48,447 bases of DNA from a virus: the IMG/VR virus record IMGVR_UViG_3300012929_000007; one strand, written 5' to 3'. The position numbers and the translations under genes are program-made. This document shows, in pieces, positions 4,247 through 48,447 of this stretch. The notes beneath the pieces were generated by a model that had not been told where the DNA came from, did not search any database, and saw nothing but the letters and a program-made list of their open reading frames with translations. Numbering within the stretch: the first letter of the stretch is position 1; each line of letters opens with the position of its first letter.

Positions 4247-5203
4247 ATGGACGTAACGCCGTTGCTCAAGGCGGAGGATGATCTACTAGCTATCGAGTTG
4301 GACACGTCCGACAAGGTAGCCAGCATCCTCCGCCCGGTGTTCGCGCGCATCCTGGCGGAGATCACGGCGCTATGGCCAGGCGACGACGCGAGCCAAGACG
4401 CCAAGACCCGAGCGCTCGCAAGTGTGCGTTTAAACAGACTGCAACCCCTCATGGCCTTGGTCCGGTCCACCATCAAGCAGGGCGCTCGGGAAGCCCTGGC
4501 GCACGGGTTGCGTGCCGCACAGGATGAGGCGCTTGCCGCTGGCGCACGGGCCATGTTGCCGCCGTCCGGGTACCACCTCAGCGCGGCCCTGCATGGGCGT
4601 GTTGACAAGCTTGAACAAGACATGCGCGAAAGCGTAGCCAATAGCAGCGTGCTGCTCGGGCATGTTGACACGCTTACGGACGTCCACATCGCACTAGCGG
4701 TTGCACAGCAAGGTATCAACAAGTCAGAGATGGTCGCGCGATACGTGACCAACGAGGCGAGCAACGACGCGCTTACGACCGTATCGCGAGCCACTGATGA
4801 GCTGGTGTCAGTGTGGCATGCCGAGCGTGACGCGTGTCTTGACTGCCTCGCGTACCAAGGCGAGATTGACACCGGTGAAGGTTATCCCGAGGGCTTGACG
4901 TTCGCGGATAAGCCGATATCGCGCGGCCCGGTTGAGTCACCACCGTTACACCCCAACTGCCGATGTAGTCAGTGGCTCGTGCACAAGGATGTTGCCGAAC
5001 CCCTTGCCGAATCGCTTAAGCGCGAGGCTGAGCGGTCGGTGTTGCGCGGCTGGTCATTGCCAAGTGAATCGAACAACGCTCGTGTTGCTGCCGCTAATAG
5101 GTTGCTTAATCGAGGTACTGACCTGCCTAAGTCAGTTCGTGAGTACGCGCAACGTGCGGTCAAACACGGAACCTTCATGCGTGGACGCAGACCACCGACA
5201 TAG
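4247..5203 (+). CDS. MuF-like head morphogenesis / minor capsid protein (SPP1 gp7 family)
   Basis: Carries the C-terminal HPNCRC motif and lies downstream of the portal region. Confidence 0.75.
   Translation: MDVTPLLKAEDDLLAIELDTSDKVASILRPVFARILAEITALWPGDDASQDAKTRALASVRLNRLQPLMALVRSTIKQGAREALAHGLRAAQDEALAAGARAMLPPSGYHLSAALHGRVDKLEQDMRESVANSSVLLGHVDTLTDVHIALAVAQQGINKSEMVARYVTNEASNDALTTVSRATDELVSVWHAERDACLDCLAYQGEIDTGEGYPEGLTFADKPISRGPVESPPLHPNCRCSQWLVHKDVAEPLAESLKREAERSVLRGWSLPSESNNARVAAANRLLNRGTDLPKSVREYAQRAVKHGTFMRGRRPPT
4427..4436. repeat. YGTTTAAACR copy 1
   Basis: cGTTTAAACa inside the MuF-like gene, read as R-L-N. Confidence 0.95.
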
Positions 5204-5285
5204 CGACAACGGCGCATGTCTGCTAGATTGACGGACATGCGCGGGACGCGCACCGGGAGGGATTCCCGTATGAAAGGACAACTCA

Positions 5286-5834
5286 ATGAGTGGCGACACC
5301 ACGGGCGACAAGGGCACTGGTGCGACGGACGGGACGTCCGGCAAGCCAGACGACAAGGCCACTACGGACGCAACCACCGACGCTACCGGCGCAACCGGTA
5401 AGCCCGGAGACGCGGACACGAAGGACAATGACGTCACCGGGTTGCGTAACACCGTCAAGGCGTTGCGCAAGGAACGTGACGACATGGCCAAGGCTCAGCG
5501 GGATGCTGAGCTTGCCAAGCTGCCCGAACTAGAGCGCGCACAGTCGGAAGCCATCGCCTTGAAGGCTGAGAACGAGAAGCTTGCGACCGAGAACATGCGC
5601 TACCAAGTCGCCATGAAGCTTGGACTCCCGTGGACCATCGGCAAGCGCCTTACCGGCGACACCGTTGAAGAGATGGAAGCCGATGGCGCAGAGTTGGCCA
5701 AGAGCTACAAGATCGATGACAAGCGACTCATCGATGACACGGCGAACAAGCGGCCCCGTAACGACGCAAAACGTGACGGCGGGACCGGCAAACCCGACAT
5801 GAACGCCCTACTGCGCGCGATGCGTAACGGGTAA
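5286..5834 (+). CDS. Capsid scaffolding protein
   Basis: 182 aa, acidic and coiled-coil-rich (AELAKLPELERAQSEAIALKAENEKLATEN). It lies immediately upstream of the major capsid gene and has RBS GAAAGGA. Confidence 0.65.
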   Translation: MSGDTTGDKGTGATDGTSGKPDDKATTDATTDATGATGKPGDADTKDNDVTGLRNTVKALRKERDDMAKAQRDAELAKLPELERAQSEAIALKAENEKLATENMRYQVAMKLGLPWTIGKRLTGDTVEEMEADGAELAKSYKIDDKRLIDDTANKRPRNDAKRDGGTGKPDMNALLRAMRNG

Positions 5835-5853
5835 CGGAAAGGTAGCGTCCCGC

Positions 5854-9291: not shown

Positions 9292-9301
9292 CGTTTAAAC
9301 G
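9292..9301. repeat. YGTTTAAACR copy 2
   Basis: cGTTTAAACg directly abutting the ATG of 9302..9538. Confidence 0.95.
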
Positions 9302-11485: not shown

Positions 11486-14400
11486 ATGCAACTAGGCGAA
11501 GCATTCATTCAACTAACGCTTGCATTGCCACCCGGGGCAAACGCGGAGGTTGCCAAAGACGCGGCCAAGGCTGGCGAAGCGGCAGGTAAGGCCCTCACCG
11601 AGGGCATGAACAAAACGATAAGCGTCGACGCCGCAATGCGGGGGGTAACGCAGACAACGGCCAAGGCTGGCGTTGAAAGCGGCAAGACGTTCGGTGAGGG
11701 CTTCAAGAAGTCTACTCAGGACAGTACCAAGGACACCAAGGTCGGCCCGGACGACAGCACGAGCACTCGACAAGGCGCGGACACCGGGGGCAAGTTCTCG
11801 GAGTCGTTTAAACGCGCAGTTGACAGCGCGCTCCGAAACCTCCCATCGCCGAATATCAATGCCGACACGTCAGCGGCACAGCAACAGATAGCCGCGCTCC
11901 GGACCAAGCTTGAGGAGCTGTCCGGCAAGAGCGTCGGTGTCGACATCGATTCGTCGGCAGCGCTTGCCAAAGTCCAGGAGATCAGTGCTGAGCTTAATAA
12001 ACTCGGCTCTGAGAGCGCCAACATCGCCATCAAGGTTGACGCGGGCGCAGCGCAAGCCAGTCTTGAGCACCTTACCGAAGAGGTCAACAAGATCAAAGAC
12101 GTCAACGTCAAGGTCAACGTTGATACCGCGTCTGCGTCGGACGCAGCCGGAAAGTTCAGTGAGAAGTTCAAGGCGACGATCGAGGGGGCGTTAAGTAACC
12201 TCCCCGACGTCAAGATCAACGCGGACACAACAGACAGTGAACTCAAGCTCGCCGCGCTCAAGAAGGAACTTGCAGACCTCGGTAACGCTAAGGTCGGCAT
12301 AGACATCGATCCAAGTCTTGCACAAGCGCAGATCACGCGCATCAAAGCCGACCTTGATGAGCTTAGCAAGAAGGACGCGAACGTACAGATTCGTGTCGAC
12401 GCGGGCGCGGCTGCGGCAGAACTAGCCGCGTTCAAGCGTGAGACCGACAAGCTTGACGGCAAGAACGTAAAGGTCAAGGTCGACGCGGACACCGGAAGCG
12501 CCATAAGCAAGCTTGAAGGCGTCAACAGCGCGGCTGGCAACGCAGGGCAAGGCATCGGGGTCATCCCGCTAGCGCTTGCGGGTATTGCCCCTGCTGCCGC
12601 TCCGGCGGCTGCGGCTGTGGTGGCTGCGTGTGGGGCCATGGCAGGGGCTGTGGCTGGCGCGGCAGCCGGTATCGGCGTACTCAAGCTTGCGTTTCTCGGC
12701 GTCGGCGACGCGTCCAAGGCGCTTGCTGCGTCCGACGCGGCTGCGGCGCAGACAGCTCAAGCTCAACAGGCTGCCAACGCTGCGGTAGCCACTTCGCTCA
12801 AGGGCGTTCAGAACGCCGAGAAGGACTTGCAGCGGGCGCGCGAGGACGGTGCACGCGCGGTAGCCGACGCAATGAAACAGGTCTTGACCGCTGAGCAAAA
12901 CGTTGGTGACGTCGAGAAGCAAGCGGCACACGACGCAACCCAAGCAGCCAAAGACGTTGTTAGCGCCAAACAGAACGTGCTAGACGTCACCAAGCAGGCG
13001 TCACGTGAAGAGCGGGATGCCCAACAGGCCGTTACCGACGCTACTGCAAACTACAAACAGGCTCAGCTTGACGCAGCACAGGCAGTCAAGGACGCAATCC
13101 AGGGCGTTACTGACGCACAGGACAACTACCGGCAGGCTCAGCACGACACAGCCGAAGCGGCGCAAGCGGCAGCTAAGGCAGTAACAGCGGCGCAAGAAGG
13201 TCTCAAACAAGTATTTGTGGACAACGCGCAGCGCGAGAAGGACGCTGTGGAGGCTGTTGCCGGGGCGCAAGCCGATCTCAAGCGTGCGCAAGAGGATGTT
13301 GTCCAGTCCACTAAAGACGCTGCACAGAAGATCATCGAAGCGCAGAACAACGTCAAGGACGCGCAGGAGAAAGCGGCCGATGACCAGGTCGCTTCCGCCC
13401 GTAAGGTGGCTGACGCCCAACAGGCGATTGTCGACGCGCACAAGGCTGCGGAACAACAGGCCAAGGATTCGGCGCGTGCGATTGCTGACGCGCAACAGGG
13501 AGTGGCCGACGCAGAGAAGAACGCTGCGGACACCGAGGTTCAGGCCGCGCAGCGAGTCAAGGACGCTCAGCGCGGCGTGGTGGACGCCCGTCGTCAGGCT
13601 GCACAGTCCGCCGAGCAAGCCGCTCAGCGTGTCGAATCCGCAGAGCAAGCGCTAGCCGCCGCGCAACGGTCTAGTAAGGACGCTCAGAACGCGCTAACGC
13701 AAGCGCGTAAGGACTACGCAACGCAGATGCGCGACCTGAGCTTGAGCGTGCGTCAGAACGCGCTTAGTCAGCAACAGGCGCTTACGAGTATCCAACTCGC
13801 GGAAGAGAACCTTGCTAAGGTCCGCGCGGATAAGAAAGCCACTCAAGCCGAGAAGGACAACGCGGCGGAAGCGGTCCAACAGCAAAAGCTCGACTATGAG
13901 GACTTGGTCAACCGGGGCAAAGACCTCGCGGCGCAACGCAACGCGCAATCCAAGCAAGTCCTGTCGGCACAGCAGCAAGTAACCGCCAGCGTTGGCAAGA
14001 TTGCGGACGCGGAGAAGAACCTCAAGAACGCCCGGCAGGGTGTAAGCGATACCGCAATCGCCAATAACGAGCGCATCCAAAAGGCTCAAGAGGCGCTTGC
14101 CGGTTCACAGCAGGCCCAAACCAAGGCTGAGCTTGACGGCGCTAAGAACATCACTGGCGCGCAACAGAAGCTAGCCGACACGCGTGACAAGGCCGCACAA
14201 GCGGCTGAGCAGAGCAGCCGCAAGATATCCACGGCCGACCAGAACCTTACCGACGCACAGAACAAGGCAGCCGAGCAGCGCGAACAAGACCAAAAGAAGA
14301 TTGTCGACGCGCTACAGAAGGTTGCTGCGGCGCAGCAAGCCCAAGTGCGCTTGGCTGAGGACAACGCGCGCAAGATTCAAGCTGCCGAAGACAAGCTAGC

Positions 14401-17400: not shown

Positions 17401-18301
17401 CATGAACGCTGTAGCCCGGTCGGGAGGCGTTCACGGGGTCAAGCAGGCCCTTGGACTTGCCCGAGGTGGCATCGTCCCGCGTCAGGCGCTAGCAGGGGGT
17501 GGGATCGTCGGCACGCTGTCCGGGTGGTGGGAAGACCTGTCGAGCATGGTTGATGGTCCGCTTAAGACCATTGGCAACATCGCGGAGGGAGCTAAGAACC
17601 TCGCTAAAGCCCCGTGGCTCAACGACATGGTGCACAAGGCCGTTGAAACGCTCATGACCGGCGTCAAGAATATCGTCATCGGCAACCACTCGGGTGGAGG
17701 TAACAGCCCCGGCACGAGCGTTCTTGGCAAGCCTGGCGACCTAAAGATCAGTGACGGTCAAGGGTGGGCGTGGCAGGAAAGCGTGCTCCGCAAGGCGTTC
17801 CCTTCGATTGCGTTCTACAGCACCACAGGTGGCCACCACGCCAAGAACTCGTGGCACTACAAGGGCCGCGCGGTCGACATGACCCCCAGTATGGATATCT
17901 TCAACTGGATCAAGAAGAACTATGGCAGCAAGACGCTTGAGTTGATCTACGGTCCGGCTGGCGGTCAAACGGTCTGGCATGGACAGAACCACAGCTACAG
18001 CCCTAGCCTCATGGCCGCGCACTATAATCACGTGCATTGGGCATACAACCAAGGTGGCGTTCTACCCACATACGACGATGGCGGTTGGTTGCAACCCGGC
18101 AGCGTCGGGGTTAACCGTTCAGGCAAGCCGGAAGCCGTGCTCACGCCGGAAGAGTCCAGAGGCTTGAAGAGCATGGGTGTTGGCGAGCTTATCGATAAGC
18201 TTGAGGAGCTTATTGACGAGGTCAAGAAGGTTGCGCCCGGCGTGGGCGGCTACATCCGGGGGTCGGGACGCGGGATCGTTGCCGCAGGACGGAGCGTTTA
18301 A
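11486..18301 (+). CDS. Tape measure protein (about 2270 aa) with an embedded LAS/M15-type peptidase motif near the C-terminus
   Basis: The ATG at 11486 lies 6 nt after AAGGGG (the track start is GTG 11480). The protein has long Ala/Gln/Asp coiled-coil repeats, a hydrophobic core, W-rich repeats, and WHYKGRAVD...HYNHVH at roughly 17760-18050. Confidence 0.9.
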   Translation: MQLGEAFIQLTLALPPGANAEVAKDAAKAGEAAGKALTEGMNKTISVDAAMRGVTQTTAKAGVESGKTFGEGFKKSTQDSTKDTKVGPDDSTSTRQGADTGGKFSESFKRAVDSALRNLPSPNINADTSAAQQQIAALRTKLEELSGKSVGVDIDSSAALAKVQEISAELNKLGSESANIAIKVDAGAAQASLEHLTEEVNKIKDVNVKVNVDTASASDAAGKFSEKFKATIEGALSNLPDVKINADTTDSELKLAALKKELADLGNAKVGIDIDPSLAQAQITRIKADLDELSKKDANVQIRVDAGAAAAELAAFKRETDKLDGKNVKVKVDADTGSAISKLEGVNSAAGNAGQGIGVIPLALAGIAPAAAPAAAAVVAACGAMAGAVAGAAAGIGVLKLAFLGVGDASKALAASDAAAAQTAQAQQAANAAVATSLKGVQNAEKDLQRAREDGARAVADAMKQVLTAEQNVGDVEKQAAHDATQAAKDVVSAKQNVLDVTKQASREERDAQQAVTDATANYKQAQLDAAQAVKDAIQGVTDAQDNYRQAQHDTAEAAQAAAKAVTAAQEGLKQVFVDNAQREKDAVEAVAGAQADLKRAQEDVVQSTKDAAQKIIEAQNNVKDAQEKAADDQVASARKVADAQQAIVDAHKAAEQQAKDSARAIADAQQGVADAEKNAADTEVQAAQRVKDAQRGVVDARRQAAQSAEQAAQRVESAEQALAAAQRSSKDAQNALTQARKDYATQMRDLSLSVRQNALSQQQALTSIQLAEENLAKVRADKKATQAEKDNAAEAVQQQKLDYEDLVNRGKDLAAQRNAQSKQVLSAQQQVTASVGKIADAEKNLKNARQGVSDTAIANNERIQKAQEALAGSQQAQTKAELDGAKNITGAQQKLADTRDKAAQAAEQSSRKISTADQNLTDAQNKAAEQREQDQKKIVDALQKVAAAQQAQVRLAEDNARKIQAAEDKLAKSRESQSRTIAEDAKKVRDAQDNIASAQQRQADVTYANQRKLKAAQDNIAKAEQRQAQVRAQNARKLSDAERAVIRAQEQQVTVQENGTKRVKDAQDKVTQAIQHQSDVATSNSRKIQAAEDGVAKARENASRAAETAGRSVADAQDKVKTAEDNLAKARKNASQVGIDAANKLKTALQGIGQAQIDFAKFWNKFSQTVKAQTSNAAGAGILPAIQAGLEKSVLGAAGNVKTGLIKFISDTGNTIGGLVTKAFAALDSPQIKGFGAFLTRTTQGSIKTFGDALINVGKGVAALIVAFEPFQGPVLKAIKDVSDQFLKWATNLKGSKDFQVFTDYVKQNAPLLEQLVKNLVTVIGHLGVGISGLGGPVLKTLVDLTGQIAKLSPDTVAKLAAAVYLLVAAFKGITVVSNAVSAISGVSSALGTLTKVFGGAAVATEAMTVAEGEATVATSALDVALGILTAPITLIVAAIALFVGGLVLLYNKNKWFHDFVNTAWANIKKAISAVTDWFVNTAWPAMKKVWDQLVELFKSPTVQTYLKALGTEFKVTWDLIVGAVKVAWAYLSGVFKIIGDLLSGNFKKAWTDFGTTVGNVWNGIKATVSKVWTDIQNSVFGKAIDYIKGAFAAAWNWLWKNLIGPVWSGIKTVISTTWGIVKGIFDTIVSVVKTVLGPVFNVLWKVFIKPAWEGIHLAIRIAWVAIQIIYKTIEIALILLGKAFTALWKDVIVPAWNGIKSFISKTWDGIKKIFDIVVGFLKKEFAQAWTWIKDHVVAMWNDLKRGIKIEWDWIHDHILQPIINWLKKTFGPAWTWLKDTVKALWADMKRGIKIEWDWIKDHILNPALNWVKKTFGPAWTWLKDHVKAVWADMKRGIKIEWDWIKDHIFEPIKTFITKTIPDAFTTGVNAVKAAWQKVTDIVKAPIKILVNTIIDDGIIAGFNSIATKVGVSPITPIPKLATGGVLPGYTPGSDVHMFTSPTGGALALSGGEAVMRPEWTRAVGPAFVDSMNAVARSGGVHGVKQALGLARGGIVPRQALAGGGIVGTLSGWWEDLSSMVDGPLKTIGNIAEGAKNLAKAPWLNDMVHKAVETLMTGVKNIVIGNHSGGGNSPGTSVLGKPGDLKISDGQGWAWQESVLRKAFPSIAFYSTTGGHHAKNSWHYKGRAVDMTPSMDIFNWIKKNYGSKTLELIYGPAGGQTVWHGQNHSYSPSLMAAHYNHVHWAYNQGGVLPTYDDGGWLQPGSVGVNRSGKPEAVLTPEESRGLKSMGVGELIDKLEELIDEVKKVAPGVGGYIRGSGRGIVAAGRSV
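11795..11804. repeat. YGTTTAAACR copy 3
   Basis: cGTTTAAACg in the tape measure gene, read as F-K. Confidence 0.95.
16673..17045 (+). repeat. In-frame tandem repeat of 135 bp, about 2.7 copies, inside the tape measure gene
   Basis: The unit AWTW(I/L)KD..K..WADMKRGIKIEWDWIKDHIL.P..NW.KKTFGP starts at 16673, 16808 and 16943. Confidence 0.8.
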
Positions 18302-18304
18302 ACG
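18295..18304. repeat. YGTTTAAACR copy 4
   Basis: cGTTTAAACg. It contains the tape measure stop TAA and abuts the ATG at 18305. Confidence 0.95.
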
Positions 18305-22786: not shown

Positions 22787-23809
22787 TTGGATTCTCGGCC
22801 AGACAGGACAGCCCCCATGATTTTGCTCGGTGTTCACGGCCCCGGCACTCCCACCGAAATCCGTGCGACGTACCCGCTGACAGACGCTACACGCGAATTC
22901 AAAGGCGGGGTTATTCCCCCGCAGAACCTCATCCCCAGCTTTGAGAACCTGTGTCGTCCGGCGCTGGACGATGACATGCACGTGGTTGTGTCGTTCAAGC
23001 CCCGTCCGGACGACGTGACCAACGGCGCGTGGCAGCTCTACATTGAACAACTCGCGCGGCACATCAACGTCAACGAGTTGGCCGACAAGGTGACCGTCGT
23101 GTTCTGGCATGAGCCGGAGGACGACACGCGCGACAGCTATCCGAACGGGACGCACAAGGTCATGAGCTTCGGCACAGCCGAGGACTTCGTTCGGTACTTC
23201 AACACACTGCACGCGTGGGTCAAGGGCGTGGACCCGAACATCGTGACATGTCACGCAGCACTCGGTTACGGTTACCGGCCCAAGGTCGGCGGCCCGCATG
23301 ACAAGAGCGCATGGGTCGCCAACCCGGACGCATGGGTGACTCGCGCGGACGTCCACGCCATCGACATCTACAGTGGGCGGTCATTCCCCGTCACGGACAC
23401 GCTTGAGGTGAGCCCGGTGTTTAAACGGTGGCTTGACTCGCGACCGGACGATGTGGCGTGGGCGGTTGCGGAGCGTGGCTGGCCGACCGTCGAGCACGAG
23501 GCGCGCGCAAAGGCCATCACGGACGAGTTCGCGTGGCTCAAGACGCTCCCGGAAGCCGCACGGCCAACCTTCTACCTGGTGTGGGCCACGGACGGCACCG
23601 AGCACGATCCGAGCCTGTTACTCGATACGAGCGCGCAGAACGCCATCAATACCGGGTTCGCGCTGCTCAACGCACCTGACGAGGATCCCACACCCGTACC
23701 GGCACCCGAGACGGTGGAGTGCCCGCTGTGCCACGGGTCGGGGCGGGTACCTGTGGCACATACCATCGCTATTCAGACGTTCGTAACGGTGGCGAAACCA
23801 GGTGCGTAA
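22787..23809 (+). CDS. Putative glycoside hydrolase (TIM-barrel-like, FWHEPEDD motif) with a C-terminal CxxCxGxG zinc-finger-like tail
   Basis: The ORF is clear; the start could instead be the Met of MILLGVHG (ATG 22817), since RBS placement is unclear. The functional call rests only on the WHEPE acid/base-like motif and the position next to the lysis genes. Confidence 0.4.
   Translation: MDSRPDRTAPMILLGVHGPGTPTEIRATYPLTDATREFKGGVIPPQNLIPSFENLCRPALDDDMHVVVSFKPRPDDVTNGAWQLYIEQLARHINVNELADKVTVVFWHEPEDDTRDSYPNGTHKVMSFGTAEDFVRYFNTLHAWVKGVDPNIVTCHAALGYGYRPKVGGPHDKSAWVANPDAWVTRADVHAIDIYSGRSFPVTDTLEVSPVFKRWLDSRPDDVAWAVAERGWPTVEHEARAKAITDEFAWLKTLPEAARPTFYLVWATDGTEHDPSLLLDTSAQNAINTGFALLNAPDEDPTPVPAPETVECPLCHGSGRVPVAHTIAIQTFVTVAKPGA
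23418..23427. repeat. YGTTTAAACR copy 5
   Basis: tGTTTAAACg in 22787..23809, read as F-K. Confidence 0.95.
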
Positions 23810-25784: not shown

Positions 25785-25786
25785 GG

Positions 25787-36336: not shown

Positions 36337-38922
36337 CTAGTCGTCCGTCTCCCCGTGACTGTCGTCCGTGTTGTGCCCGGTAGCCGCGCGGTAGATCATC
36401 TCTGTGTACGCAACAGGTATCGGGTAGTACGTCCCCGTGATCGCACCCTTGCCCCGAACTTGCGTCGTCCAACGCTTACCGTCGCCGTCCGAAGTCTTGG
36501 GCGGGCTACCTAGCTTGACGCCCAACGCGGCAAGCTCAAGTTCGATCGCCCGACAGTCCGTCAAACTAGCTTCTCGGATGTCGCTGCGCGCGGGACCGCT
36601 TAGCCACGCTTCGGCGGTTTGCTGGGGCCATACCCAAAATTGACGGGTCTGTGCGTTGTAAAACACCGGGTACAGCCCGTGTGTGCCGTACAGACGTGTT
36701 AGCGGCTGACGTGCAGCGTTCCATACCCGAGGGATCACCTTGTTCACTACGATTGACGGCGATACTGCGAAGTCGAACGTTGCGGCCCACTCGTCAACAC
36801 GTTGTGTGTGTGCAGGGTCCCCGAGGATGGCCGATAGCACCCGTGCGCCACAACGCATGATGGCCACCATCTGGCCACGTCGGCTTGTTGATGTCGTCAG
36901 GGTCTCAACGTCGTTGAACACATCCGCGTGTCGTAGGGCTAGCTGCACGAGCGCACCTGCGTACTGTGTTAGATCTTCTTGGTGCGTTCGCTTGAAGAAC
37001 GCATCGACGTCATGCCACTGGCTGCGTGTCGGGTCTGTGGCGGACTTCCGCGTGTCCGCGCTAGGCATAGACACCGTGACGAACCTGTCAGCCATGGCCT
37101 TTTGGTCTGTGAATGTGATGCGCTCCGCGCTGTATACCGTTGACGCGTGCAAGTCGATGTCTTTACGCTCCTTAAACCCCGTGTCTCGGTCCTTTATCGA
37201 ATACGACCCCCCTGTGGCAGCTTGCCGAAATAGCTCTTGACATTGGGGGTCCATCTCAACGTCGTCAAACCAGTTGAACACGTTGGTTGATAGTTGGTAC
37301 GTGTCACGCGCTACCGCGTATGTTACTTTTCCCGGCTTCCGTCGGATGCCGCATAGTTGCCCAAGCATCCGAACGTACGTGCTCTTGCCACTTCCGGAGT
37401 GCGCTTCAATCGCGAGGTTCGGAGACTGCCACGAGTAGTGACCTTTGAGCAGCGTAACCATGAGGAACGCCCCGAATAGCGACATGGTGTGTTCGTCTTG
37501 GAACGTCAGGAACTCGCGCAGTACATCAACCGCACCGTCCTTAAACCCGTAGTTGAGTTGAGCGTCCTTGATCTTGAGATAGTTATTGGCCGGAGTAACA
37601 GAGTCCGTCCGGATAAGGCTGTCCGGCGTGACAAAAGCAGACAGCGCCGCGTCCCATCCGTACTTTTCAATGACGGTTTGGCGCTCGTGCGTCTGACTTT
37701 GCAGGAGGCATAACAGCCGTTCACCGTGGTTGCCTCGCTTGTCCGACGTCGGAGCAAGAAGTGACATCCCCCGGTCCACCAAGAACGCACGTAGTCGGGT
37801 GGTCGATGACAGCACCGAGCTTGGCAAGTCCACGTTCTCAAGGGTGGTCCCGTCCGCCTTGTGAAAGTCTACGACCCACACTTGGTGATCTCCGTAGTCG
37901 ACCAACGACTTAGCTGTCACGCGGAAGTTAGACCATGCCACGTATTCGAGCTTATCTCCGGACCCGACCGCTGTGGAGTACCCGGTTTCCCCCATCTCGT
38001 ATAACCAACCGCGCTCACTATCGGCCACGATAACTGCGATATCGGCAAGCCGCTTATCTTCCGTCTTGCGCCAGATACCCTCAAGCTTGGCAAGATCGGT
38101 GTCTGACAAGGGATCGGTCAGCGCGCCGCTCGTAGCCCGTAGCCACGCCCGGAACATCGGCAGGTCGCCAGGAAGCATTTTGGCCAGCCGTGACGCAATC
38201 TTTGCAAACGCGATGTTCCCTAGGTCCGGCGAATCCGGTTCGTCAGCCACCCGGGTAAGCAGGTCCACAACCTCACGATCAACGGTCTTCTCACCATCGA
38301 CCTTTCCCGCAAGACGCGTCTTGGTGCGCACGCGTGTCGGCACCATGTCGGCCGGAAACTCTTTGGGCTCAACCGGGTTGGCCACCTTGTACCGGGTGCC
38401 GTTGCTGTGCACGGACGGCGACAGCACCACGTAGCCTTTCCCTGCCGCGCGAGTATCCACACCGGGCCAGTAGGCGTTACCGGGTTGGGTCTGTTCAAGT
38501 TGCCGGGTGGGGTCGTTAGGCTGCCGGTACAGCAAGTGGTGCTTGTACGCGGTACTAGTTGACTGTTTAAACGTTACGGGGAATGTGACCTCCGGGTGCT
38601 CAGTGTCCACGTCGACCCACACATAACCGTCGTCCGGCGTGCCTCCCAGGTTGGCGTTTGGGTACTTGTCGAACCACCCCCGGATGACGTCCGCGTCCTT
38701 GGTGGCCTTGTCCCCCCACTTGAACCCGGATAGCGGCAGCTTGCCGACGTCCTTAGGGTCGCACGGGATGTCTTTCCACTCACCTTTTACTTGCCTCAGG
38801 TGCGTGTGCGGCCCCATGGCCGGAGAGCACAGGGGGAACACCCGGTGATAGAACTTTGCCCACCACAGCGCGTGCTCGACCATGGGTGACGTGACCGCTA
38901 GCGGCCGGACAAGCTTTGGCAT
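36337..38922 (-). CDS. Bifunctional primase-polymerase (Prim-Pol) / D5-type helicase
   Basis: 861 aa. The N-terminus has a Prim-Pol-like pattern (VFPLCSP...GKLPLSGFKW...YVWVDVDTEH), and the C-terminal half carries the P-loop AHSGSGKST. Confidence 0.8.
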   Translation of the reverse strand: MPKLVRPLAVTSPMVEHALWWAKFYHRVFPLCSPAMGPHTHLRQVKGEWKDIPCDPKDVGKLPLSGFKWGDKATKDADVIRGWFDKYPNANLGGTPDDGYVWVDVDTEHPEVTFPVTFKQSTSTAYKHHLLYRQPNDPTRQLEQTQPGNAYWPGVDTRAAGKGYVVLSPSVHSNGTRYKVANPVEPKEFPADMVPTRVRTKTRLAGKVDGEKTVDREVVDLLTRVADEPDSPDLGNIAFAKIASRLAKMLPGDLPMFRAWLRATSGALTDPLSDTDLAKLEGIWRKTEDKRLADIAVIVADSERGWLYEMGETGYSTAVGSGDKLEYVAWSNFRVTAKSLVDYGDHQVWVVDFHKADGTTLENVDLPSSVLSSTTRLRAFLVDRGMSLLAPTSDKRGNHGERLLCLLQSQTHERQTVIEKYGWDAALSAFVTPDSLIRTDSVTPANNYLKIKDAQLNYGFKDGAVDVLREFLTFQDEHTMSLFGAFLMVTLLKGHYSWQSPNLAIEAHSGSGKSTYVRMLGQLCGIRRKPGKVTYAVARDTYQLSTNVFNWFDDVEMDPQCQELFRQAATGGSYSIKDRDTGFKERKDIDLHASTVYSAERITFTDQKAMADRFVTVSMPSADTRKSATDPTRSQWHDVDAFFKRTHQEDLTQYAGALVQLALRHADVFNDVETLTTSTSRRGQMVAIMRCGARVLSAILGDPAHTQRVDEWAATFDFAVSPSIVVNKVIPRVWNAARQPLTRLYGTHGLYPVFYNAQTRQFWVWPQQTAEAWLSGPARSDIREASLTDCRAIELELAALGVKLGSPPKTSDGDGKRWTTQVRGKGAITGTYYPIPVAYTEMIYRAATGHNTDDSHGETDD
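38564..38573. repeat. YGTTTAAACR copy 12
   Basis: tGTTTAAACg in the Prim-Pol/helicase gene, read as F-K. Confidence 0.95.
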
Positions 38923-39209: not shown

Positions 39210-39219
39210 TGTTTAAACG
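39210..39219. repeat. YGTTTAAACR copy 13
   Basis: tGTTTAAACg at the left edge of the switch region, 3 nt upstream of the start of 38932..39207. It overlaps a plus-strand TAGTGT. Confidence 0.95.
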
Positions 39220-39259: not shown

Positions 39260-39689
39260 CCATCGTCTTACCGGTGCGTCGCGGATTCCGGGTAGTCCGG
39301 TGTACCCCAGGGTGCATCAACGGTTACATCAGAGGTTTTTGATCTTGAACCCGTAGTATCCACCATTATCTATGGCTATGTCAAGATCATCTACAGGGCC
39401 TGACGTACCCAGTGATGCACCCCCTGACGTACCCAAAGATGTACCCCAAAACCCCAGGTCAAGGGCCATGATGTAACTGATGTAACCGTATTTCGTCTTC
39501 TCATGTGTGTGTGAGGTGGTGGGAAGGTCGTTCGTGGGCTCGTGACAAACGTCCTTAGGGTAGGGGGCTTATTTTCCCCGGGAGGTTACGTCGTTACATC
39601 ACGCCACGATCTTGAGCTTACTTTGGTAAGATAGGAGTTGCCCGCCCCGACATGGCGCGGCCGAGACAACAGAACAGGGTGTTTAAACA
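39260..39689. promoter_or_regulatory. Divergent switch region, candidate replication origin, packed with short direct and inverted repeats
   Basis: About 430 bp non-coding with lower GC. At least 8 copies of GAYGTAMC/GKTACRTC are present, plus CCTGACGTACCCA twice, GATCTTGA three times, and the inverted pair GGTGCATCA/TGATGCACC. It is bounded by GTTTAAAC at 39211 and 39681. Confidence 0.6.
39680..39689. repeat. YGTTTAAACR copy 14
   Basis: tGTTTAAACa at the right edge of the switch region, abutting the GTG start at 39690. Confidence 0.95.
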
Positions 39690-40185: not shown

Positions 40186-42427
40186 GATTGCTATCGGCAA
40201 CCCGGACGGCACCGTCACCATGCGGGCATGGTCTGCCTGCGAGCTGGGGGCGTGGCTGGCGGACAACGTCAAGCCCGTGGGCGGGGCGGTCAGCCTAGAT
40301 ACGGAGGCGTCCGGGCTGCACGTTGACGGCATGTGGGCCAGCGATGCCGCCAAGTGCTCGCCAGAGGCCCGTGTGAGCATCGTGAGCCTCGCATGGCACG
40401 AGTGGGCCAAGGACATCTGTCCGCCCTGCTACGGGGCAACGGTGGGCGTTCCTGTGGGCGGGGACCACGAGGACGGGTGCATGGGTGACGGGTCGTACGA
40501 GCGACTTGAGCGGCGGTCTGTGGCCATCCCGTTCGATCAGGGCATGATCGGCGGTAAGCAGGGCCGTTACATCAAGCGGGTCACCAAACGCACACCGGTG
40601 TTGGGGTGGCAGATCATTCCGCACACGGCCGAGTGCGTGTTCGTACATCGGCCGATGGAAGATCGGCACATCCCCCCGCAGACGTGCGTGTGTGCGCCGT
40701 GGAACTTCGGCGTGCAGGGGTGGCGAGACCTGTGTGAGTTCCTTGTCTCGCGCGTGGACTTTTTTAACGCGAAATACGACATGTGGATCATGCTCGCGGG
40801 GTTGCGCAACGGTGCCCACGCGGCGTGCGACCCCAGGTGCGTGGGGTGGCAGCACGCCAAGGGGTGTTTAAACGCAGGGGTTGACCTGAGCGGCCAGCTC
40901 GGGCGGGACGTCATGCTCTGGGAGTCCATCGTGGACCCTGTGCAGAAGGCCAGCCTCGACAACGTGGCGCACAAGTTCTTCGGCGAGCGCAAGGACAACG
41001 GCATCGAGGAAGGACTCAAGGCTAACGGCGTGGGGCTCGGCAAGCGGTATGACCTCGTGGCGTGGGATATCGCGGGCAAGTACGCGGCCAAGGACGCGGA
41101 CCTTACGTGTCGGGCGGTCATGCGGGAAGACAGCATGCGCGACATGGGCGAGATCGACTTCAAGGACTTTCCCATCATTGAGCGCGAGCACGAGAAGTGC
41201 TTGACGCTCTTCCGCATGGAGCAACGGGGCGTGGGGTTCGACGCGGACCTGTGCGCAGAACAGGCCGTGAAGATGCATGCGGAGGTGGCGACGCTTGTCG
41301 GTCAGCTTCCGTTCACGGCCAACAGCATTGCGGCAGGCAAGTACTTCTTTGGGTCGCCGGAGAGTGGCGGTCTCGGCATCATGCCCATCAAGCTCACGGA
41401 CGGGGGTGCGCCAAGCTGTGATGCTGAGGTGGTTGCGCGACTTACGCACGAGCAAGGTACGGCGGGGGAGGTGGCCAAGCTTTGGGCGCACATCTCTAAC
41501 ATGCAGAGCGTTTGTAGCAAGTGGTACGACGCGTGGCCGAACAGGGCGGGGCGGGATGGTCGTCTACGAACGAACTATTGGCAATGCTCGGTTGAGAGTG
41601 ATCGTGCAGACGGATACAGCGGGGGTGCCATCTCGGGTCGGCTTAGCGCGGACCGCGTACAACTTCAAGGTGTCCCGCAAGCGTGGCGCATTCCGCCGGA
41701 CGTTGTCGGCATCAAGAAACTTTTCCGTGCACGTGCAGGGCACGAGGTATGGGAGATCGACGCTAGTAATGCAGAGGTTCGTGTCGCTGCGTGGCTATCG
41801 CAGTGCCACGCGCTAGCTGCGGTCATCAACTCGGGCGTCAACGTGCACGATGCCAACACGAAGAACATCTTTGGCATCGACGAAACCGATCCACGGTGGA
41901 CGCAGATTCGCACGAGCATGAAGCGCGGCATTTTCGGCACGATCTACGCGTCGGGCGTACGGACGCTCAAGCAGCAGATCGACGCGGACCTTAAGGCGGA
42001 TATCCCCGAGCGCGACATCCGGCGCTTTCAGGATGAGCTGAACGCCGCGTATCCGGAACTCAAGCGGACCGCCAAAGCGTGTGAGCGCAAGGTGGACACG
42101 AACATCGGCGGACCGGGTTACGTGCGGCTGGTGTCGGGCCGACGTCGGGTGTTCGGCTGGGGTGAGAAGACGTACAAGGCGTTCAACGCGTGTGTGCAGG
42201 GTGGCGTGTCAGAGATGATGTCGGTCCTCATGCTTGAGGTGGACCGTACGTACCCCGGTATCTTGATCAACCAGGTGCATGACTCGCTTTGGCTTGAGAT
42301 CCCGAGCATCGTCGCGGAGTCGATCGTCAAGGACGTTCAGGCGATGGGCAAGGATATCTTCGAGCGCGCGTTCAGCACGAACGCGCTACACATCACGTTT
42401 GAGTTCGACGCAAAGCGGTTGGTGTGA
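40178..42427 (+). CDS. DNA polymerase I (family A) with a 3'-5' exonuclease domain
   Basis: Exo I-like SLDTEASG, motif A-like EIDASNAEVRV, motif B-like RTSMKRGIFGTIYASG and motif C-like QVHDSLWLE. The alternative start is 40166. Confidence 0.85.
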   Translation: MPEIAIGNPDGTVTMRAWSACELGAWLADNVKPVGGAVSLDTEASGLHVDGMWASDAAKCSPEARVSIVSLAWHEWAKDICPPCYGATVGVPVGGDHEDGCMGDGSYERLERRSVAIPFDQGMIGGKQGRYIKRVTKRTPVLGWQIIPHTAECVFVHRPMEDRHIPPQTCVCAPWNFGVQGWRDLCEFLVSRVDFFNAKYDMWIMLAGLRNGAHAACDPRCVGWQHAKGCLNAGVDLSGQLGRDVMLWESIVDPVQKASLDNVAHKFFGERKDNGIEEGLKANGVGLGKRYDLVAWDIAGKYAAKDADLTCRAVMREDSMRDMGEIDFKDFPIIEREHEKCLTLFRMEQRGVGFDADLCAEQAVKMHAEVATLVGQLPFTANSIAAGKYFFGSPESGGLGIMPIKLTDGGAPSCDAEVVARLTHEQGTAGEVAKLWAHISNMQSVCSKWYDAWPNRAGRDGRLRTNYWQCSVESDRADGYSGGAISGRLSADRVQLQGVPQAWRIPPDVVGIKKLFRARAGHEVWEIDASNAEVRVAAWLSQCHALAAVINSGVNVHDANTKNIFGIDETDPRWTQIRTSMKRGIFGTIYASGVRTLKQQIDADLKADIPERDIRRFQDELNAAYPELKRTAKACERKVDTNIGGPGYVRLVSGRRRVFGWGEKTYKAFNACVQGGVSEMMSVLMLEVDRTYPGILINQVHDSLWLEIPSIVAESIVKDVQAMGKDIFERAFSTNALHITFEFDAKRLV
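40865..40874. repeat. YGTTTAAACR copy 15
   Basis: tGTTTAAACg in the DNA polymerase gene, read as L-N. Confidence 0.95.
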
Positions 42428-46804: not shown

Positions 46805-46980
46805 TGGCAGGTTTAAGGCGTGAGTCCCCGATGTCCATGCTTGAACGTGCGGTCATGAACACCGGGCAGCGTACGTACATTGACGTTCAAGCGGAGCTTT
46901 ACGCGCAAGGGATTGATGTGGGAGAGACACCTGTTCGTCGTGCGTTGCGTAAGCTACGATCGGAGATCTCCGAGCGTTAG
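46804..46980 (+). CDS. Small hypothetical protein, 58 aa (possible HTH)
   Basis: TGATG overlap with the upstream stop. Confidence 0.4.
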   Translation: MAGLRRESPMSMLERAVMNTGQRTYIDVQAELYAQGIDVGETPVRRALRKLRSEISER

Positions 46981-46991
46981 GGTTAAACGAC

Positions 46992-47528
46992 ATGGCACAT
47001 CGTGAATACGAGAACGCCATTCAGCGTTGTGACATATGGGCTAAGAAGCGTAGGGCTCTTGAGCTGAGACTAGCTAAAGAGCCCTACAGCCGTATTGCCG
47101 ACGAACTTGATGTCAGCACTGCAACGGCCCATCAATGGGTGCGCGAGCTGACTGCTATCCAACTTCCGCAAGAGGACATGGACGACGTTCGGGCGCATGA
47201 AGCGGCGGGTTACGACGCATCCGAGCAGCGCGTAACCGCGATGATGGCCATGGTGGCGGACATTGCCGCAGAACGTAAGGCTAAGAATGAGCCCATCGGG
47301 TATCAGATCGAGCAGCTTAACAGCCTTGAGAAGACACTCGGCGAGGTGCGCAAACAGCGCGCGCTACTTCTTGGCATCAACCGGCCCGTGTTGGTCAAGC
47401 ACAACGTGACGATTCGTAACGTGCTTGATGACGAGATCGAAGCGCTTGTTTCGGAGCTTAGCGGGGGCGGCAACATCATGAGTGACCCCGAGATGGTCGA
47501 TCTTGAAGGGGACACCGCCGATGACTAG
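46992..47528 (+). CDS. Terminase small subunit (putative, N-terminal HTH)
   Basis: The sequence YSRIADELDVSTATAHQWVRE looks like an HTH. The gene overlaps the TerL start by 8 nt and is preceded by GGTTAAACGAC. Confidence 0.55.
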   Translation: MAHREYENAIQRCDIWAKKRRALELRLAKEPYSRIADELDVSTATAHQWVRELTAIQLPQEDMDDVRAHEAAGYDASEQRVTAMMAMVADIAAERKAKNEPIGYQIEQLNSLEKTLGEVRKQRALLLGINRPVLVKHNVTIRNVLDDEIEALVSELSGGGNIMSDPEMVDLEGDTADD

Positions 47529-48447
47529 AGGCGTGAGTAACAAGCCCAAACCCGAGCCAACACCGGTGTCGGAACTGCGCGAACGCATCACGGCGCTTGA
47601 TCCCGATCGTAAGCGACAGCTAGCCGCGCGCCTCCGGGTGGAGCGTGAGGTACGTCGGACGGCGTGGCTGTGCCGCATCCCCATGTGCGTGGGCAACCCA
47701 CACCCTGAGTGCCCGGTGCGGCATGCTCGGGCAAACCAGCGGTTGCCGTTTAAACGCGGAGATGGCAAGACCGGTGCCTTGTGGATGGCAGGTCGCGGGT
47801 TTGGTAAGACGCGCATCGGTGCTGAGGGTGTACGCACCATGACCACTAAGACGCGCGGGGGTGCTGGTCGTATCGCGCTCATTGCGCGGACCGCTGCCGA
47901 CGTACGTGACGTCATGATTGAGGGTGAAAGTGGCCTGCTCAATGTATTCCCCAAGTGGGAACGTCCTGAGTATCAACCTAGCAAGCGACGTATCGTCTTT
48001 CATAACGGAGCTGTTGCGTTTGCGTATTCCTCAGAGGACCCTGACTTACTGCGTGGCCCACAACACGATTTCGTATGGGGTGATGAGTTCAGTACATGGC
48101 GTTACCTTGCGGCTGTCATGTCCAACGCTTTGATGGGTATGCGGCTTGGTGAAGAGCCGCGCATGATCCTTACGGGTACGCCTCGCCCGAGCAAGGACGT
48201 CAAGAAGCTGGTCAACGGCAAGTTCGGCAACTTCTATATCATTCGCGGCACCACATACGACAATCTTGTCAACCTCGCGCCTGTCTTTCATGACACGGTG
48301 ATCCGGCAGTACGAGGGTACGCGCACCGGTCGGCAAGAGTTGAATGGTGAGCTGCTGTCTGACGTGGTCGGCGCGATGCTTAGCCATGACGTGTTTGATG
48401 CCGATGGCTTTCGGTGGGACGCTGACTTGCCGGATGACGTGTCTACG
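47521..48447 (+). CDS. Terminase large subunit, N-terminal ATPase part (open at the window end, continues at base 1/124)
   Basis: ATG at 47521. Walker A-like GRGFGKT and Walker B-like HDFVWGDE. No stop occurs before the window end, and the frame matches 1..663 through the 123-bp overlap. Confidence 0.85.
   Translation, partial: MTRGVSNKPKPEPTPVSELRERITALDPDRKRQLAARLRVEREVRRTAWLCRIPMCVGNPHPECPVRHARANQRLPFKRGDGKTGALWMAGRGFGKTRIGAEGVRTMTTKTRGGAGRIALIARTAADVRDVMIEGESGLLNVFPKWERPEYQPSKRRIVFHNGAVAFAYSSEDPDLLRGPQHDFVWGDEFSTWRYLAAVMSNALMGMRLGEEPRMILTGTPRPSKDVKKLVNGKFGNFYIIRGTTYDNLVNLAPVFHDTVIRQYEGTRTGRQELNGELLSDVVGAMLSHDVFDADGFRWDADLPDDVST
47747..47756. repeat. YGTTTAAACR copy 16
   Basis: cGTTTAAACg in the TerL gene, read as F-K. 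Confidence 0.95.
48325..48447. repeat. Terminal direct repeat, copy 2
   Basis: Identical to 1-123. Confidence 0.95.

Follow-up and report, generated by a model that had tools for sequence, protein, structure and literature searches.

Why should a GC-rich viral genome carry the same AT-rich palindrome again and again? In the 48,447-nt stretch of DNA analysed here (the window), GTTTAAAC occurs in 16 exact copies where 0.2–0.4 would be expected overall, an enrichment of about 50-fold. We asked whether this excess reflects selection, where the copies lie, and which protein might read them.

An exact palindromic word in excess

The excess, first claimed in the initial annotation, was confirmed against three kinds of expectation. 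Dinucleotide shuffles of the window (n=100) averaged 0.37 copies and never exceeded 3, none of the 100 reaching 16. Markov models of orders 0–3, of which order 3 had been proposed as a check, predicted only 0.12–0.32. Codon-preserving shuffles within genes (n=2000), proposed likewise, gave an intragenic mean of 0.21 and a maximum of 2 against the 8 copies observed, and 0/2000 reached 8. Window GC content is 60.6%, close to the earlier by-eye estimate, and 15 of the 16 coordinates first listed were right, 11796 being a typing error for 11806.

As had been noticed, a pyrimidine precedes and a purine follows every copy (16/16), which makes the full unit the 10-bp YGTTTAAACR. A logo built from 65 sites consists of this unit alone, with no conserved position beyond the ±1 flank, and no covariation links the Y on one side to the R on the other, pointing to two independent YGTTT half-sites. 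The window contains 16 TTTAAA hexamers, each within a motif copy, and one-mismatch variants number 3 where 7.5 are expected; with near-misses not enriched, the copies are all-or-none. The ‘degenerate versions’ described at 660 and 46981 do exist as sequences but carry little weight for the same reason. Eight of the 15 amino-acid contexts able to encode GTTTAAAC do so, through the rare codons TTT, AAA and TTA, with three intragenic copies in frames of the L-N type and five in frames of the F-K type. That only two frames are used had been taken as a sign of selection; the observation is true but says little, because a copy in the third frame would bring in a stop codon. Nor does the spacing around the genome, also remarked upon, weigh much, as it is not significantly regular (CV 0.72 vs 0.91 for random placement; 13.5% of random sets are equally even), and the early arm is 2.5-fold richer in motif copies. 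The enrichment and exactness of the motif show that selection acts on it as a DNA word.

Placement of the sites and their conservation in relatives

A search of relatives, which the initial annotation had recommended, found the motif conserved both clade-wide and at individual positions. The related contigs are all free genomes of 46–51 kb, and relatives with portal identities of 43–79% carry 7–31 copies. In one relative, R, whose proteins are 30–80% identical, 14–15 of the 16 copies recur at orthologous positions, site 34826 being the sole one without a clear counterpart. The nearest cultured relatives by capsid are Microbacterium and Mycobacterium phages. At the terminase site the codons are identical in R, L007 and L008 (portal identity down to 44%), a synonymous choice shared by four genomes. 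One lineage, L006/L034, is motif-less and has no SprT-like gene, and in L006 the sites have decayed: the terminase site is broken by a synonymous TTC, and the counterpart of site 9293 has become GTTTCAAC.

The placements reported at the outset proved correct (Table 1): the motif provides the TAA stop at 18296 and 25725, abuts start codons as CGTTTAAACGATG at 9293 and 18296, sits within the 16 nt that separate the boxes of a minus-strand TTGACA/TAACGT promoter (30135) and 3 nt before a minus-strand TAGTGT box (29117), and brackets in pairs the convergent terminator and the divergent region. Many of these arrangements recur. The terminator-flanking pair is found in R, and in L040 as GTTTAAAT/ATTTAAAC; the motif/−10 layout at 29117 is found also in R, L009, L010 and L040, and a like layout stands ahead of the SprT-like genes of phages UtzChips and Tuck; the layout at 39211 is repeated in R, L007 and L009; and R has a promoter orthologous to that at 30125–30152. 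Spacers of TTGACA-N16/17-TAGTGT/TAACGT promoters hold the motif in the window, R, L009, L010 and L040, with a variable motif-to-−10 offset of 2–6 nt. Across the 65 sites, 14 lie 0–3 nt upstream of a start codon, directly past the ribosome-binding site. Promoters and gene junctions show a recurring site geometry. Promoter spacers, gaps between ribosome-binding site and start, and terminator flanks are, however, also among the few unconstrained slots of a packed genome, so placement alone is no proof of a role in gene expression.

Table 1. Motif copies and associated features of the window (aa, amino-acid position).
Feature	Coordinates	Strand	Context	Relative R
Motif copy	4428..4435		In MuF-like gene 4247-5203, codons CGT TTA AAC	Orthologous, aa 59 vs 60
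Motif copy	9293..9300		Between ribosome-binding site GGAAGGA and ATG 9302	Orthologous
Motif copy	11806..11813		Tape-measure gene, TCG TTT AAA CGC	
Motif copy	18296..18303		Supplies tape-measure TAA stop; 1 nt before ATG 18305	Orthologous
Motif copy	23419..23426		In gene 22817-23809	Orthologous, aa 200 vs 204
Motif copy	25725..25732		Stop of last plus-strand gene; left flank of convergent terminator	
Bidirectional terminator hairpin, AAACGCCCCGG...CCGGGGCGTTT	25745..25787		Motif copy on each side; read from sequence	
Motif copy	25788..25795		Right flank of terminator; 9 nt past stop of minus-strand gene 25804-26112	
Motif copy	27938..27945		Small gene 27902-28120, downstream of SprT-like gene	Identical aa position, 58
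SprT-like gene, 283 aa	28214..29065	minus	Candidate motif reader	
Motif copy 29117-29124, 3 nt, −10 box TAGTGT 29113-29108	29108..29124	minus	SprT-like gene promoter	
Early promoter TTGACA-N16-TAACGT	30125..30152	minus	Spacer holds motif copy 30135-30142; drives gene 29168-30082	
Motif copy	34826..34833		Near 5′ end of PD-(D/E)XK nuclease gene	
Motif copy	38565..38572		Primase-polymerase gene, aa 103	
Motif copy	39211..39218		Bounds divergent control region on the left; 3 nt upstream of ATG of first leftward gene 38932-39207	
Motif copy	39681..39688		1 nt before GTG 39690, 5 nt before ATG 39694; right edge of divergent control region	
Motif copy	40866..40873		DNA polymerase I gene	Orthologous
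Motif copy	47748..47755		Large terminase gene, CCG TTT AAA CGC = P-F-K-R	

Co-occurrence with a SprT-like gene and the candidate reader

Within the clade, the SprT-like gene is the only early-arm gene that is found in all genomes with the TTTAAA motif (7/7) and is absent from L006/L034 and the outgroup L038, a comparison in which L006/L034 represent a single independent loss event and about 13 kb of that genome are missing from recovery. The closest cultured homologues of its product belong to Microbacterium phage UtzChips and Arthrobacter phage Tuck (45–51% identity), which have no other clear homologue in common with the window; beyond it they match only in a DNA polymerase I, at 26% identity, and in a peptidoglycan-binding domain. 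UtzChips has 23 copies of a one-base variant of the motif, CGTGTAAACG, vs 0.05 expected, and Tuck has 9 within 14 kb; the variant, too, is placed in core promoters, the SprT-like gene's included, and at stop codons. Curtobacterium phage Ashes, a look-alike of the same architecture, has no SprT-like gene and zero motif copies. We also examined 80 bacterial loci chosen solely by SprT-like homology, from Actinobacteria, Proteobacteria, Planctomycetota, Acidobacteria and Chloroflexi. These contain 161 copies of GTTTAAAC vs 7.0 expected, at least one in 74 of the 80, and the density is greatest at the SprT-like gene, where many intragenic copies are 16–20 bp perfect palindromes with a rare TTA codon. 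In conjugative elements the gene lies between those for relaxase and coupling protein, and one motif copy is on the relaxase/oriT side. Motif and SprT-like gene thus keep company in mobile elements that are otherwise unrelated, be they phages, prophages or conjugative elements, and since the two travel together, the SprT-like protein is the best candidate for the reader.

The protein comprises an HExxH...H metalloprotease core, a putative C-terminal Cys4 zinc ribbon and, in this clade, an N-terminal HeH/Rho_N-like domain. The SprT-like core metal-binding motif is present, with H159-E160-x-x-H163 and H172 invariant in 10 homologues; C236, C243, C269 and C271 are invariant. A tblastn search matched 164 phage records, and those among the matches listed are annotated as SprT-like protease, as are more than 100 phage records in GenBank. 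A homologue in L110 matches Pfam PF10263 at E = 4.8e-5, weaker than the curated cut-off; the window protein itself gave no Pfam match, profile searches against PDB sequences gave none either, and a single-sequence AlphaFold2 model (pLDDT 42.8) was too low in confidence for use. A SprT/Spartan fold has been reported for a homologue from Cluster AZ, in which no immunity repressor was identified; there, phages Liebe and Maureen are four nucleotides apart, and a 1-nt frameshift that truncates the SprT-like protein accompanies clear instead of turbid plaques (10.1101/2025.05.26.655371).

With moderate confidence, we read YGTTTAAACR as the sequence recognised by a DNA-binding protein that the phage encodes, for which the SprT-like protein is the best candidate, and its copies as dispersed stoperator-like sites. 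This agrees with the earlier suggestion that a dimeric phage regulator binds a symmetric site in stoperator fashion, which is the best fit to the independent half-sites, the overlap with promoters and junctions, and the conserved positions. The SprT-like protein would bind the motif directly as a dimer, each of two subunits taking one YGTTT half-site. At its own promoter and at the neighbouring gene's, the motif falls between the −35 and −10 boxes or abuts them, and a bound protein would therefore switch off both early promoters, amounting to autoregulation. The remaining copies, at gene starts, stops, the terminator, the edges of the divergent region and within genes, may load the protein genome-wide, where it could form roadblocks or insulators in the fashion of stoperators; alternatively, the sites might anchor the protease domain on the phage's own DNA. 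The asymmetric variants GTTTAAAT and GTGTAAAC, found in L040 and AZ/EH phages, are unexpected for a simple homodimer, and the N-terminal domain is unchanged in L040.

Other readers had been put forward, but none of the protein candidates follows the motif. The product of 46992–47528 is likely the small terminase and is present in the motif-less lineage too, 46831–46980 is found in the window genome alone, and a host AT-binding nucleoid protein is unlikely because the word goes with a single gene family throughout elements from at least five bacterial phyla. It is also unlikely, in our judgement, that a different reader, either a host protein or a small phage protein that evolves too fast for BLAST to follow, binds the word with the SprT-like protease as its functional partner. 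The protease might then cut the factor occupying the sites, or else a protein trapped there, after the manner of ImmA/IrrE or Spartan; ImmA/IrrE-type proteases cleave repressors, and Spartan removes DNA–protein adducts. Such a partnership would suit the gene's place between relaxase and coupling protein, a site of covalent protein–DNA complexes, and the known biochemistry of SprT/Spartan, which is DNA-dependent proteolysis and not sequence-specific reading (10.1101/2025.05.26.655371). Microbacterium phage Eden, moreover, lacks the motif although it encodes a more remote SprT-like homologue (34% identity), and a scan for SprT-like residues that switch with the motif variant brought out no clear case. 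Yet within the clade no other gene follows the motif and none is common to the window clade and AZ/EH phages, a host reader would need identical specificity over at least five phyla, and loci picked by the SprT-like gene alone have the word in 74/80 cases.

More doubtful still is that the motif serves DNA metabolism, in priming or loading of the primase-polymerase or replisome, in nicking, or as a self-mark vs GC-rich host DNA, its placement in promoter spacers and junctions being merely where an AT-rich word is tolerated. Copies lie all round the genome, half of them intragenic with 8 of the 15 possible coding slots filled, one conjugative-element copy is on the relaxase/oriT side, and GC-rich DNA contains the word so rarely that it would mark the element. 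Irregular spacing and the 2.5-fold denser early arm argue otherwise, as do two adjacent promoters about 1 kb apart that each retain a copy in four genomes, the conservation of positions individually and without turnover, and the primase, polymerase and terminase genes retained by the motif-less lineage. That GUUUAAAC acts in RNA, between Shine-Dalgarno and AUG or before terminators, as a translational-repressor, endoribonuclease or self-pairing site is scarcely credible: although 14/65 sites are 0–3 nt 5′ of a start codon right past the ribosome-binding site, every site is transcribed on some message and the palindrome is identical on either strand's transcripts, the promoter-spacer-centred sites with a geometry repeated in unrelated phages point to DNA, the Y/R flanks lack pairing covariation (4/16 would give C-A mismatches), many homologous loci hold 16–20 bp perfect DNA palindromes, and in L040 and UtzChips the asymmetric variants run both with and against transcription.

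Comparison with known systems

Literature searches agreed with the initial annotation that no described system uses this motif. The 8-bp word is identical to the PmeI/MssI restriction site. Phages deplete restriction targets, and we rejected a restriction-modification target because the word, far from being avoided, is conserved and enriched about 50-fold; no methyltransferase or endonuclease gene was seen in the window or listed relatives. A −1 frameshift heptamer (U_UUA_AAC) was rejected because the intragenic copies use both open frames, none of them falls at the tail-chaperone overlap, and the other half of the copies is intergenic. The ECF-like sigma factor encoded at 43167–43739, earlier proposed as reader, is merely 27–30% conserved and is present in motif-less L006, and a promoter element for it is at odds with the lack of conserved positions outside the 10-mer and the many copies 0–3 nt from starts.

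KorA and KorB of IncP plasmids are element-encoded, autoregulating dimers that read palindromic operators, OA GTTTAGCTAAAC and OB TTTAGCSGCTAAA, at promoters and elsewhere. The outer arms of these operators, GTTT...AAAC, resemble the motif; their half-sites are 4–5 bp apart, whereas those of the motif abut. No KorA or ParB-type protein was found among the scanned window proteins, and 40 of these (the whole non-structural half plus structural genes 2244–5203 and 18305–25730) gave no match to an integrase, partition protein or repressor in Pfam, PHROG or NCBIfam. As for the candidate reader, an HExxH core, together with a predicted small zinc-binding DNA-binding domain, is shared with SprT/Spartan/Wss1 and with ArdC of plasmid R388, a mobile-element DNA-binding metalloprotease deployed early after entry (PMC7213743; 10.1101/2025.05.26.655371); these proteins bind ssDNA or junctions, are not known to be sequence-specific and have no cognate palindrome described. 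In mycobacteriophages of Cluster K and Microbacterium phages of Cluster EF, start-associated sequences (SAS) form a conserved word just 5′ of many starts (PMC7302621). SAS replace or contain the ribosome-binding site, whereas the window motif is start-associated in about 20% of cases, follows the ribosome-binding site, and has other copies in promoters, stop codons and genes.

The stoperators of Cluster A phages (L5, Bxb1), bound by the immunity repressor and differing in motif between sub-lineages, likewise number tens of exact short sites per ~50-kb actinophage genome (PMC9283540, PMC6550527). We found the same distribution here, with one or a few sites at early promoters, the rest in short gaps at stop or start codons, and some intragenic. 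Stoperators, however, are asymmetric sites of 13–14 bp that follow the direction of transcription and are bound in temperate phages by an HTH repressor acting as a monomer, whereas YGTTTAAACR is a 10-bp palindrome without orientation, the window phage has no integrase or recognisable repressor among the 40 proteins scanned, and its candidate reader is of the SprT-like metalloprotease family. Since the phage also shows no partition genes, a lysogeny repressor role is not simply transferable.

Dispersed dyad repeats are already known in lytic actinophages, namely the 17-bp TGTTCGGNNNCCGAACA of Cluster O (>30 copies) and the 18-bp GATCAACCNNGGTTGATC of Cluster EG, which are predicted to bind a dimeric protein, with neither function nor protein identified (PMC4351075, PMC7302621). 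The motif resembles these as an invariant inverted repeat spread genome-wide, denser among non-structural genes, about one third intragenic, in non-temperate phages, and it belongs with them as an invariant repeat of at least 10 copies, partly intragenic, in a non-temperate actinophage. It differs in its abutting 5-bp half-sites, in place of 7–8 bp arms and a spacer, and in that the motif or a one-base variant spans unrelated phages, prophages and conjugative elements in several phyla, a co-occurrence that here yields a candidate reader gene. Unlike those repeats, the motif reaches well past a single phage cluster.

Enrichment and placement of the palindrome

The 10-bp palindrome CGTTTAAACG is enriched in the window, kept exact, conserved among related phages and placed at promoters and gene junctions. 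Its 8-bp core, the PmeI/MssI site GTTTAAAC, is the top over-represented 8-mer of the 48,447-bp window (60.6% G+C), with 16 exact copies where Markov models of order 0–3 predict 0.12–0.32 and dinucleotide-preserving shuffles averaged 0.37 and never exceeded 3. The initial annotation's finding is real, and stronger than first stated. Fifteen of its 16 coordinates hold, the copy placed at 11796 lying at 11806, and a pyrimidine precedes and a purine follows every copy, as described there; the spacing of the copies is not significantly regular. All 16 TTTAAA hexamers in the window fall within the motif, and one-mismatch variants number 3 against 7.5 expected, which argues that the copies are kept exact. 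When synonymous codons were permuted within each gene, a control proposed at the outset, the eight intragenic copies compared with a mean of 0.21 and a maximum of 2, and none of 2000 shuffles reached the observed count. Where the protein sequence permits the word, 8 of 15 coding slots are filled, by way of the rare codons TTT, AAA and TTA. Eight copies occupy 44.8 kb of coding sequence, versus eight in 3.6 kb of non-coding sequence and stop codons.

The window is a tailed-phage genome, complete and closed into a circle; its ends cut through the large terminase gene, so the record is circularly permuted. None of its genes was found to encode an integrase, a partition protein or a repressor. Nucleotide searches of deposited phages gave zero matches to the window, and scans with two single proteins, the primase and a tail protein, turned up no relatives among viruses; the capsid protein has counterparts of ~42% identity in Microbacterium and Mycobacterium phages. 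Possible roles for the repeats and inverted arms in the divergent control region are an origin or sites for a second regulator.

Features of the window
Feature	Position (nt)	Strand	Detail
Structural and lysis genes	~1-25730	plus	
Large terminase gene	47521-48447 and 1-663		spans the window ends
666-aa protein	2244-4244		between portal and MuF-like gene; polysaccharide deacetylase domain
Tape-measure gene	11486-18301		unusually long, 2271 codons
Early arm	25804-39207	minus	genes include primase-polymerase, PD-(D/E)XK nuclease, AAA_24 ATPase, SSB-like protein
SprT-like gene	28214-29065	minus	283-aa product
Motif site	29117		3 nt before TAGTGT in the promoter of the SprT-like gene
Gene of 304-aa neighbour	29168-30082		
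Motif site	30135		in the spacer of the promoter for gene 29168-30082
Early promoters with downstream box	36304, 30969, 30152	minus	conserved tGTAAGC/GTAAGG ~6-7 nt past the -10 box
Divergent control region	39208-39690		
Inverted arms	39320-39332 and 39477-39489		perfect, ACGGTTACATCAG
Direct repeats	39399-39446		12-nt-phased, CCTGACGTACCC / AGTGATGCACCC
Rightward arm	from 39690	rightward	genes include DNA polymerase I, RuvC-like resolvase, ECF-like sigma factor, FtsK/HerA-like ATPase, small terminase
ECF-like sigma factor	43167-43739		Pfam Sigma70_r2, E = 3.6e-7; fast-evolving, 27-30% identity to orthologues

Among 65 sites from four genomes, 14 lie 0–3 nt upstream of a start codon, directly after the ribosome-binding site, and in 8 a gene ends on the TAA within the motif. 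The site pairs first noticed around the convergent terminator and at both edges of the divergent control region are present, and both layouts recur in relatives. Early-arm promoters form a host-type family (TTGACA, 16–17 nt, TAGTGT or TAACGT), of which only some, two in the window, carry the motif in the spacer. Both of these keep it in the relative R (IMGVR_UViG_3300021440_000037), and the SprT-like gene's promoter does so too in the related contigs L009, L010 and L040. The distance from motif to -10 box is variable among genomes (2–6 nt). That the motif is present in some promoters only, and at variable distance, marks it as an operator-like addition overlapping core promoters rather than a promoter element. 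Promoter spacers and gaps between ribosome-binding site and start are also the easiest places for keeping an AT-rich word. A TTGAC found 6–7 nt after three intragenic copies is a weak signal (3 versus ~0.7 expected) with no -10 box following it, and was dropped. The box downstream of the -10 element in three early promoters also occurs in R, L009, L010 and L040, and together with the -10 box it recalls the 18-bp motif of Cluster EC, TAGaCTCTaGGTgTaAgC (PMC7302621).

Conservation, loss and variation among related phages

Relatives were found via their portal, primase and AAA_24 proteins. Conservation, which the initial annotation had proposed to check, was borne out: the same word recurs in genomes down to 43% portal identity, and relatives at ≤35% portal identity have zero copies. 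R (46,922 bp, reassembled) has 31 copies, and related contigs have 11 (L007), 15 (L008), 14 (L009), 19 (L039) and 22 (L041) per 21 kb, 7 per 22 kb (L010) and 9 per 12 kb (L014). Comparison of the window with R places an orthologue at the same position for 14–15 of the 16 sites, although the proteins concerned are only 30–80% identical, and in four genomes codon choice preserves the terminase-gene site CCG TTT AAA C (P-F-K). The logo of the 65 sites has nothing conserved outside YGTTTAAACR. Its flanking Y and R do not covary, which fits two independently read YGTTT half-sites and not nucleic-acid self-pairing.

A single loss event is known within the clade, in the lineage of contigs L006 (JAWVGW010001062.1) and L034 (71% portal identity), which has zero copies in the 35 kb recovered of an incomplete genome, some 13 kb being missing. 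Decayed sites are visible there at orthologous positions, as CCGTTCAAAC in the terminase gene, through a synonymous change, and as GTTTCAAC before the orthologue of gene 9302. A replacement motif was sought in L006 and none was found. At the place equivalent to the divergent control region L006 has unrelated TGGATACGGC repeats, and the slot of the deacetylase-domain protein is variable, L006 adding there a 1186-aa pectate-lyase-like protein.

In L040 (contig SRR22868772_45939) the word itself has changed: we found 17 copies of GCGTTTAAATGC, one transition from the palindrome, against 0.06 expected, in the same contexts as in the window, and zero copies of GTTTAAAC. Among its 20 TTTAAA sites, those that combine a G-type with an A-type half exceed both symmetric forms, possibly reflecting avoidance of perfect palindromes or altered binding by the reader. 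At L040 sites 11027 and 13612 the AAATG of the motif provides a start codon.

Association with an SprT-like gene

Of the early-arm genes, the SprT-like gene alone was found in every one of the seven TTTAAA-motif genomes and is lacking in both L034 and the outgroup L038. Its product combines a HeH/Rho_N-like domain, N-terminal and strongly conserved, with an invariant HExxH...H motif and a C-terminal four-cysteine ribbon. By tblastn it has matches in 164 deposited phages, mostly annotated 'SprT-like protease'; PDB sequence searches with the protein were empty. The three readers suggested initially are set aside, because the ECF-like sigma factor and the small terminase also occur in the motif-less lineage and the 49-aa protein occurs nowhere but in the window. 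An early protein of 167 aa that seemed to correlate was rejected likewise, its family being present in L034 (profile comparison, probability 99.6%). The small proteins of ~73 aa beside the SprT-like gene form no conserved family. In Cluster AZ and EH phages a sigma-like 'DNA binding protein' precedes the SprT-like gene, and the 304-aa neighbour is not related to it.

The closest cultured matches to the SprT-like protein (45–51% identity) belong to two temperate phages, Microbacterium phage UtzChips (Cluster EH, OQ190482.1) and Arthrobacter phage Tuck (Cluster AZ, OP820474.1). Homology between UtzChips and the window is otherwise limited to a DNA polymerase I at 26% identity and a peptidoglycan-binding domain. 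The top over-represented word of UtzChips is GTGTAAAC (consensus CGTGTAAACG), with 23 copies against 0.05 expected, situated in promoter spacers and on stop codons, and also 39 nt upstream of the SprT-like gene. Tuck has nine GTGTAAAC copies in 14 kb, three of them adjoining the -10 box of TTGCGT-N17-TAGACT promoters, including that of the SprT-like gene. Curtobacterium phage Ashes has the same architecture, with a sigma-like DNA-binding protein beside a serine integrase and no SprT-like gene, and it has zero copies of the word. Microbacterium phage Eden, with a more distant SprT-like homologue (34% identity) and no accompanying word of this kind, stands as a counter-example to the link; its top word was rejected as an analogue, being a leaderless promoter.

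We scanned the SprT-like alignment against one genome per bacterial species, which gave 80 loci (1.19 Mb) from Actinobacteria, Alpha-, Beta- and Gammaproteobacteria, Planctomycetota, Acidobacteria, Chloroflexi and others. These contain 161 copies of GTTTAAAC against 7.0 expected and 98 of GTGTAAAC against 18.6 expected. At least one GTTTAAAC copy is present in 74 of the 80 loci, C is the preceding base in 119 of the 161 copies, and density across the loci is at its maximum at the SprT-like gene. Many loci have a copy within the gene itself, at either ...RLN... (CGT TTA AAC, with the rare TTA codon) or ...FKR...; such copies are often perfect palindromes of 16–20 bp, for example CAGCGCGTTTAAACGCGCTG, and in Planctomycetota take the form GTTTACAC. 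Some alphaproteobacterial loci (L110, L117, L097 and similar) are conjugative elements, in which the SprT-like gene has a MobA/VirD2 relaxase gene on one side and a VirD4/TraG coupling-protein gene on the other; one GTTTAAAC lies within the gene and another ~1.2 kb upstream, towards the relaxase, where the intergenic region is divergent. Seven Streptomyces prophage-like loci (L053, L054, L057, L059, L060, L071 and L081) have SprT-like homologues, 4–11 copies of GTTTAAAC and 3–11 of GTGTAAAC within 20 kb, and a further strongly enriched AT-rich word, TAGTATTT / TTTGGAAT.

A candidate reader and known dispersed repeats

The association of the word with the SprT-like gene is shown by four largely independent comparisons: the loss within the clade, the unrelated cultured phages, the look-alike phage without the gene, and the 80 cross-phylum loci. 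From this association we infer that the SprT-like protein reads the motif, an undetected partner being less likely. A position scan of GTTTAAAC-type versus GTGTAAAC-type SprT-like proteins found no covarying residue. The SprT-like protein would probably bind as a dimer on two YGTTT half-sites, and would repress the neighbouring promoter as well as its own, at the least. Other copies would spread the protein along the genome, where they might serve as roadblocks or might anchor the protease domain. More broadly, and more tentatively, a widespread subfamily of SprT-like zinc metalloproteases from phages, prophages and conjugative elements may have a sequence-specific DNA address (CGTTTAAACG or lineage variants such as CGTGTAAACG and GCGTTTAAATGC), which the elements plant in their own promoters, at gene junctions and even in the SprT-like gene. 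The protein would then be at once a genome-wide regulator of the stoperator type that controls its own expression and a protease tethered to the DNA of its element. If the link is true, phage regulation or immunity, DNA-tethered proteolysis and plasmid transfer would be joined via one short word.

Literature searches on GTTTAAAC and GTGTAAAC in phages returned nothing relevant, in agreement with the initial remark that no described system was known to use the motif, and no paper tying SprT-like proteins to a palindromic site was found. The SprT-like family is not known for sequence-specific binding. The pairing of motif and gene is present in cultured, tractable phages of Arthrobacter Cluster AZ and Microbacterium Cluster EH, whose dispersed motif CGTGTAAACG is apparently undescribed so far. 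No immunity repressor is known for these two clusters; a 2025 preprint reports that none has been found in Cluster AZ, and contains no description of the GTGTAAAC motif (10.1101/2025.05.26.655371). The Cluster AZ phages Liebe and Maureen differ by four nucleotides, including, in Liebe, a frameshift that truncates the SprT-like protein, and Liebe plaques are clear and those of Maureen turbid (10.1101/2025.05.26.655371). The SprT-like protein could be the missing immunity factor of temperate Cluster AZ/EH actinophages.

The phenomenon belongs to a kind already known, the dispersed operator-like repeats of actinophages. Cluster-specific repeats have long been noted and are mostly unexplained, and the present case supplies a concrete candidate reader, together with an easy assay target in the PmeI site. 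Lytic actinophages have dispersed dyad repeats of unexplained function, including a 17-bp Cluster O repeat with >30 copies, a predicted dimeric-protein site with no promoter link, and an 18-bp inverted repeat in Cluster EG; start-associated sequences are known from Clusters K and EF (PMC4351075, PMC7302621). The Cluster A stoperators are the explained example, and the sole dispersed-repeat case with an established reader (PMC9283540). Unlike these known repeats, the motif described here is a short palindrome, it reaches across phyla, and its candidate reader comes from the SprT-like protease family.
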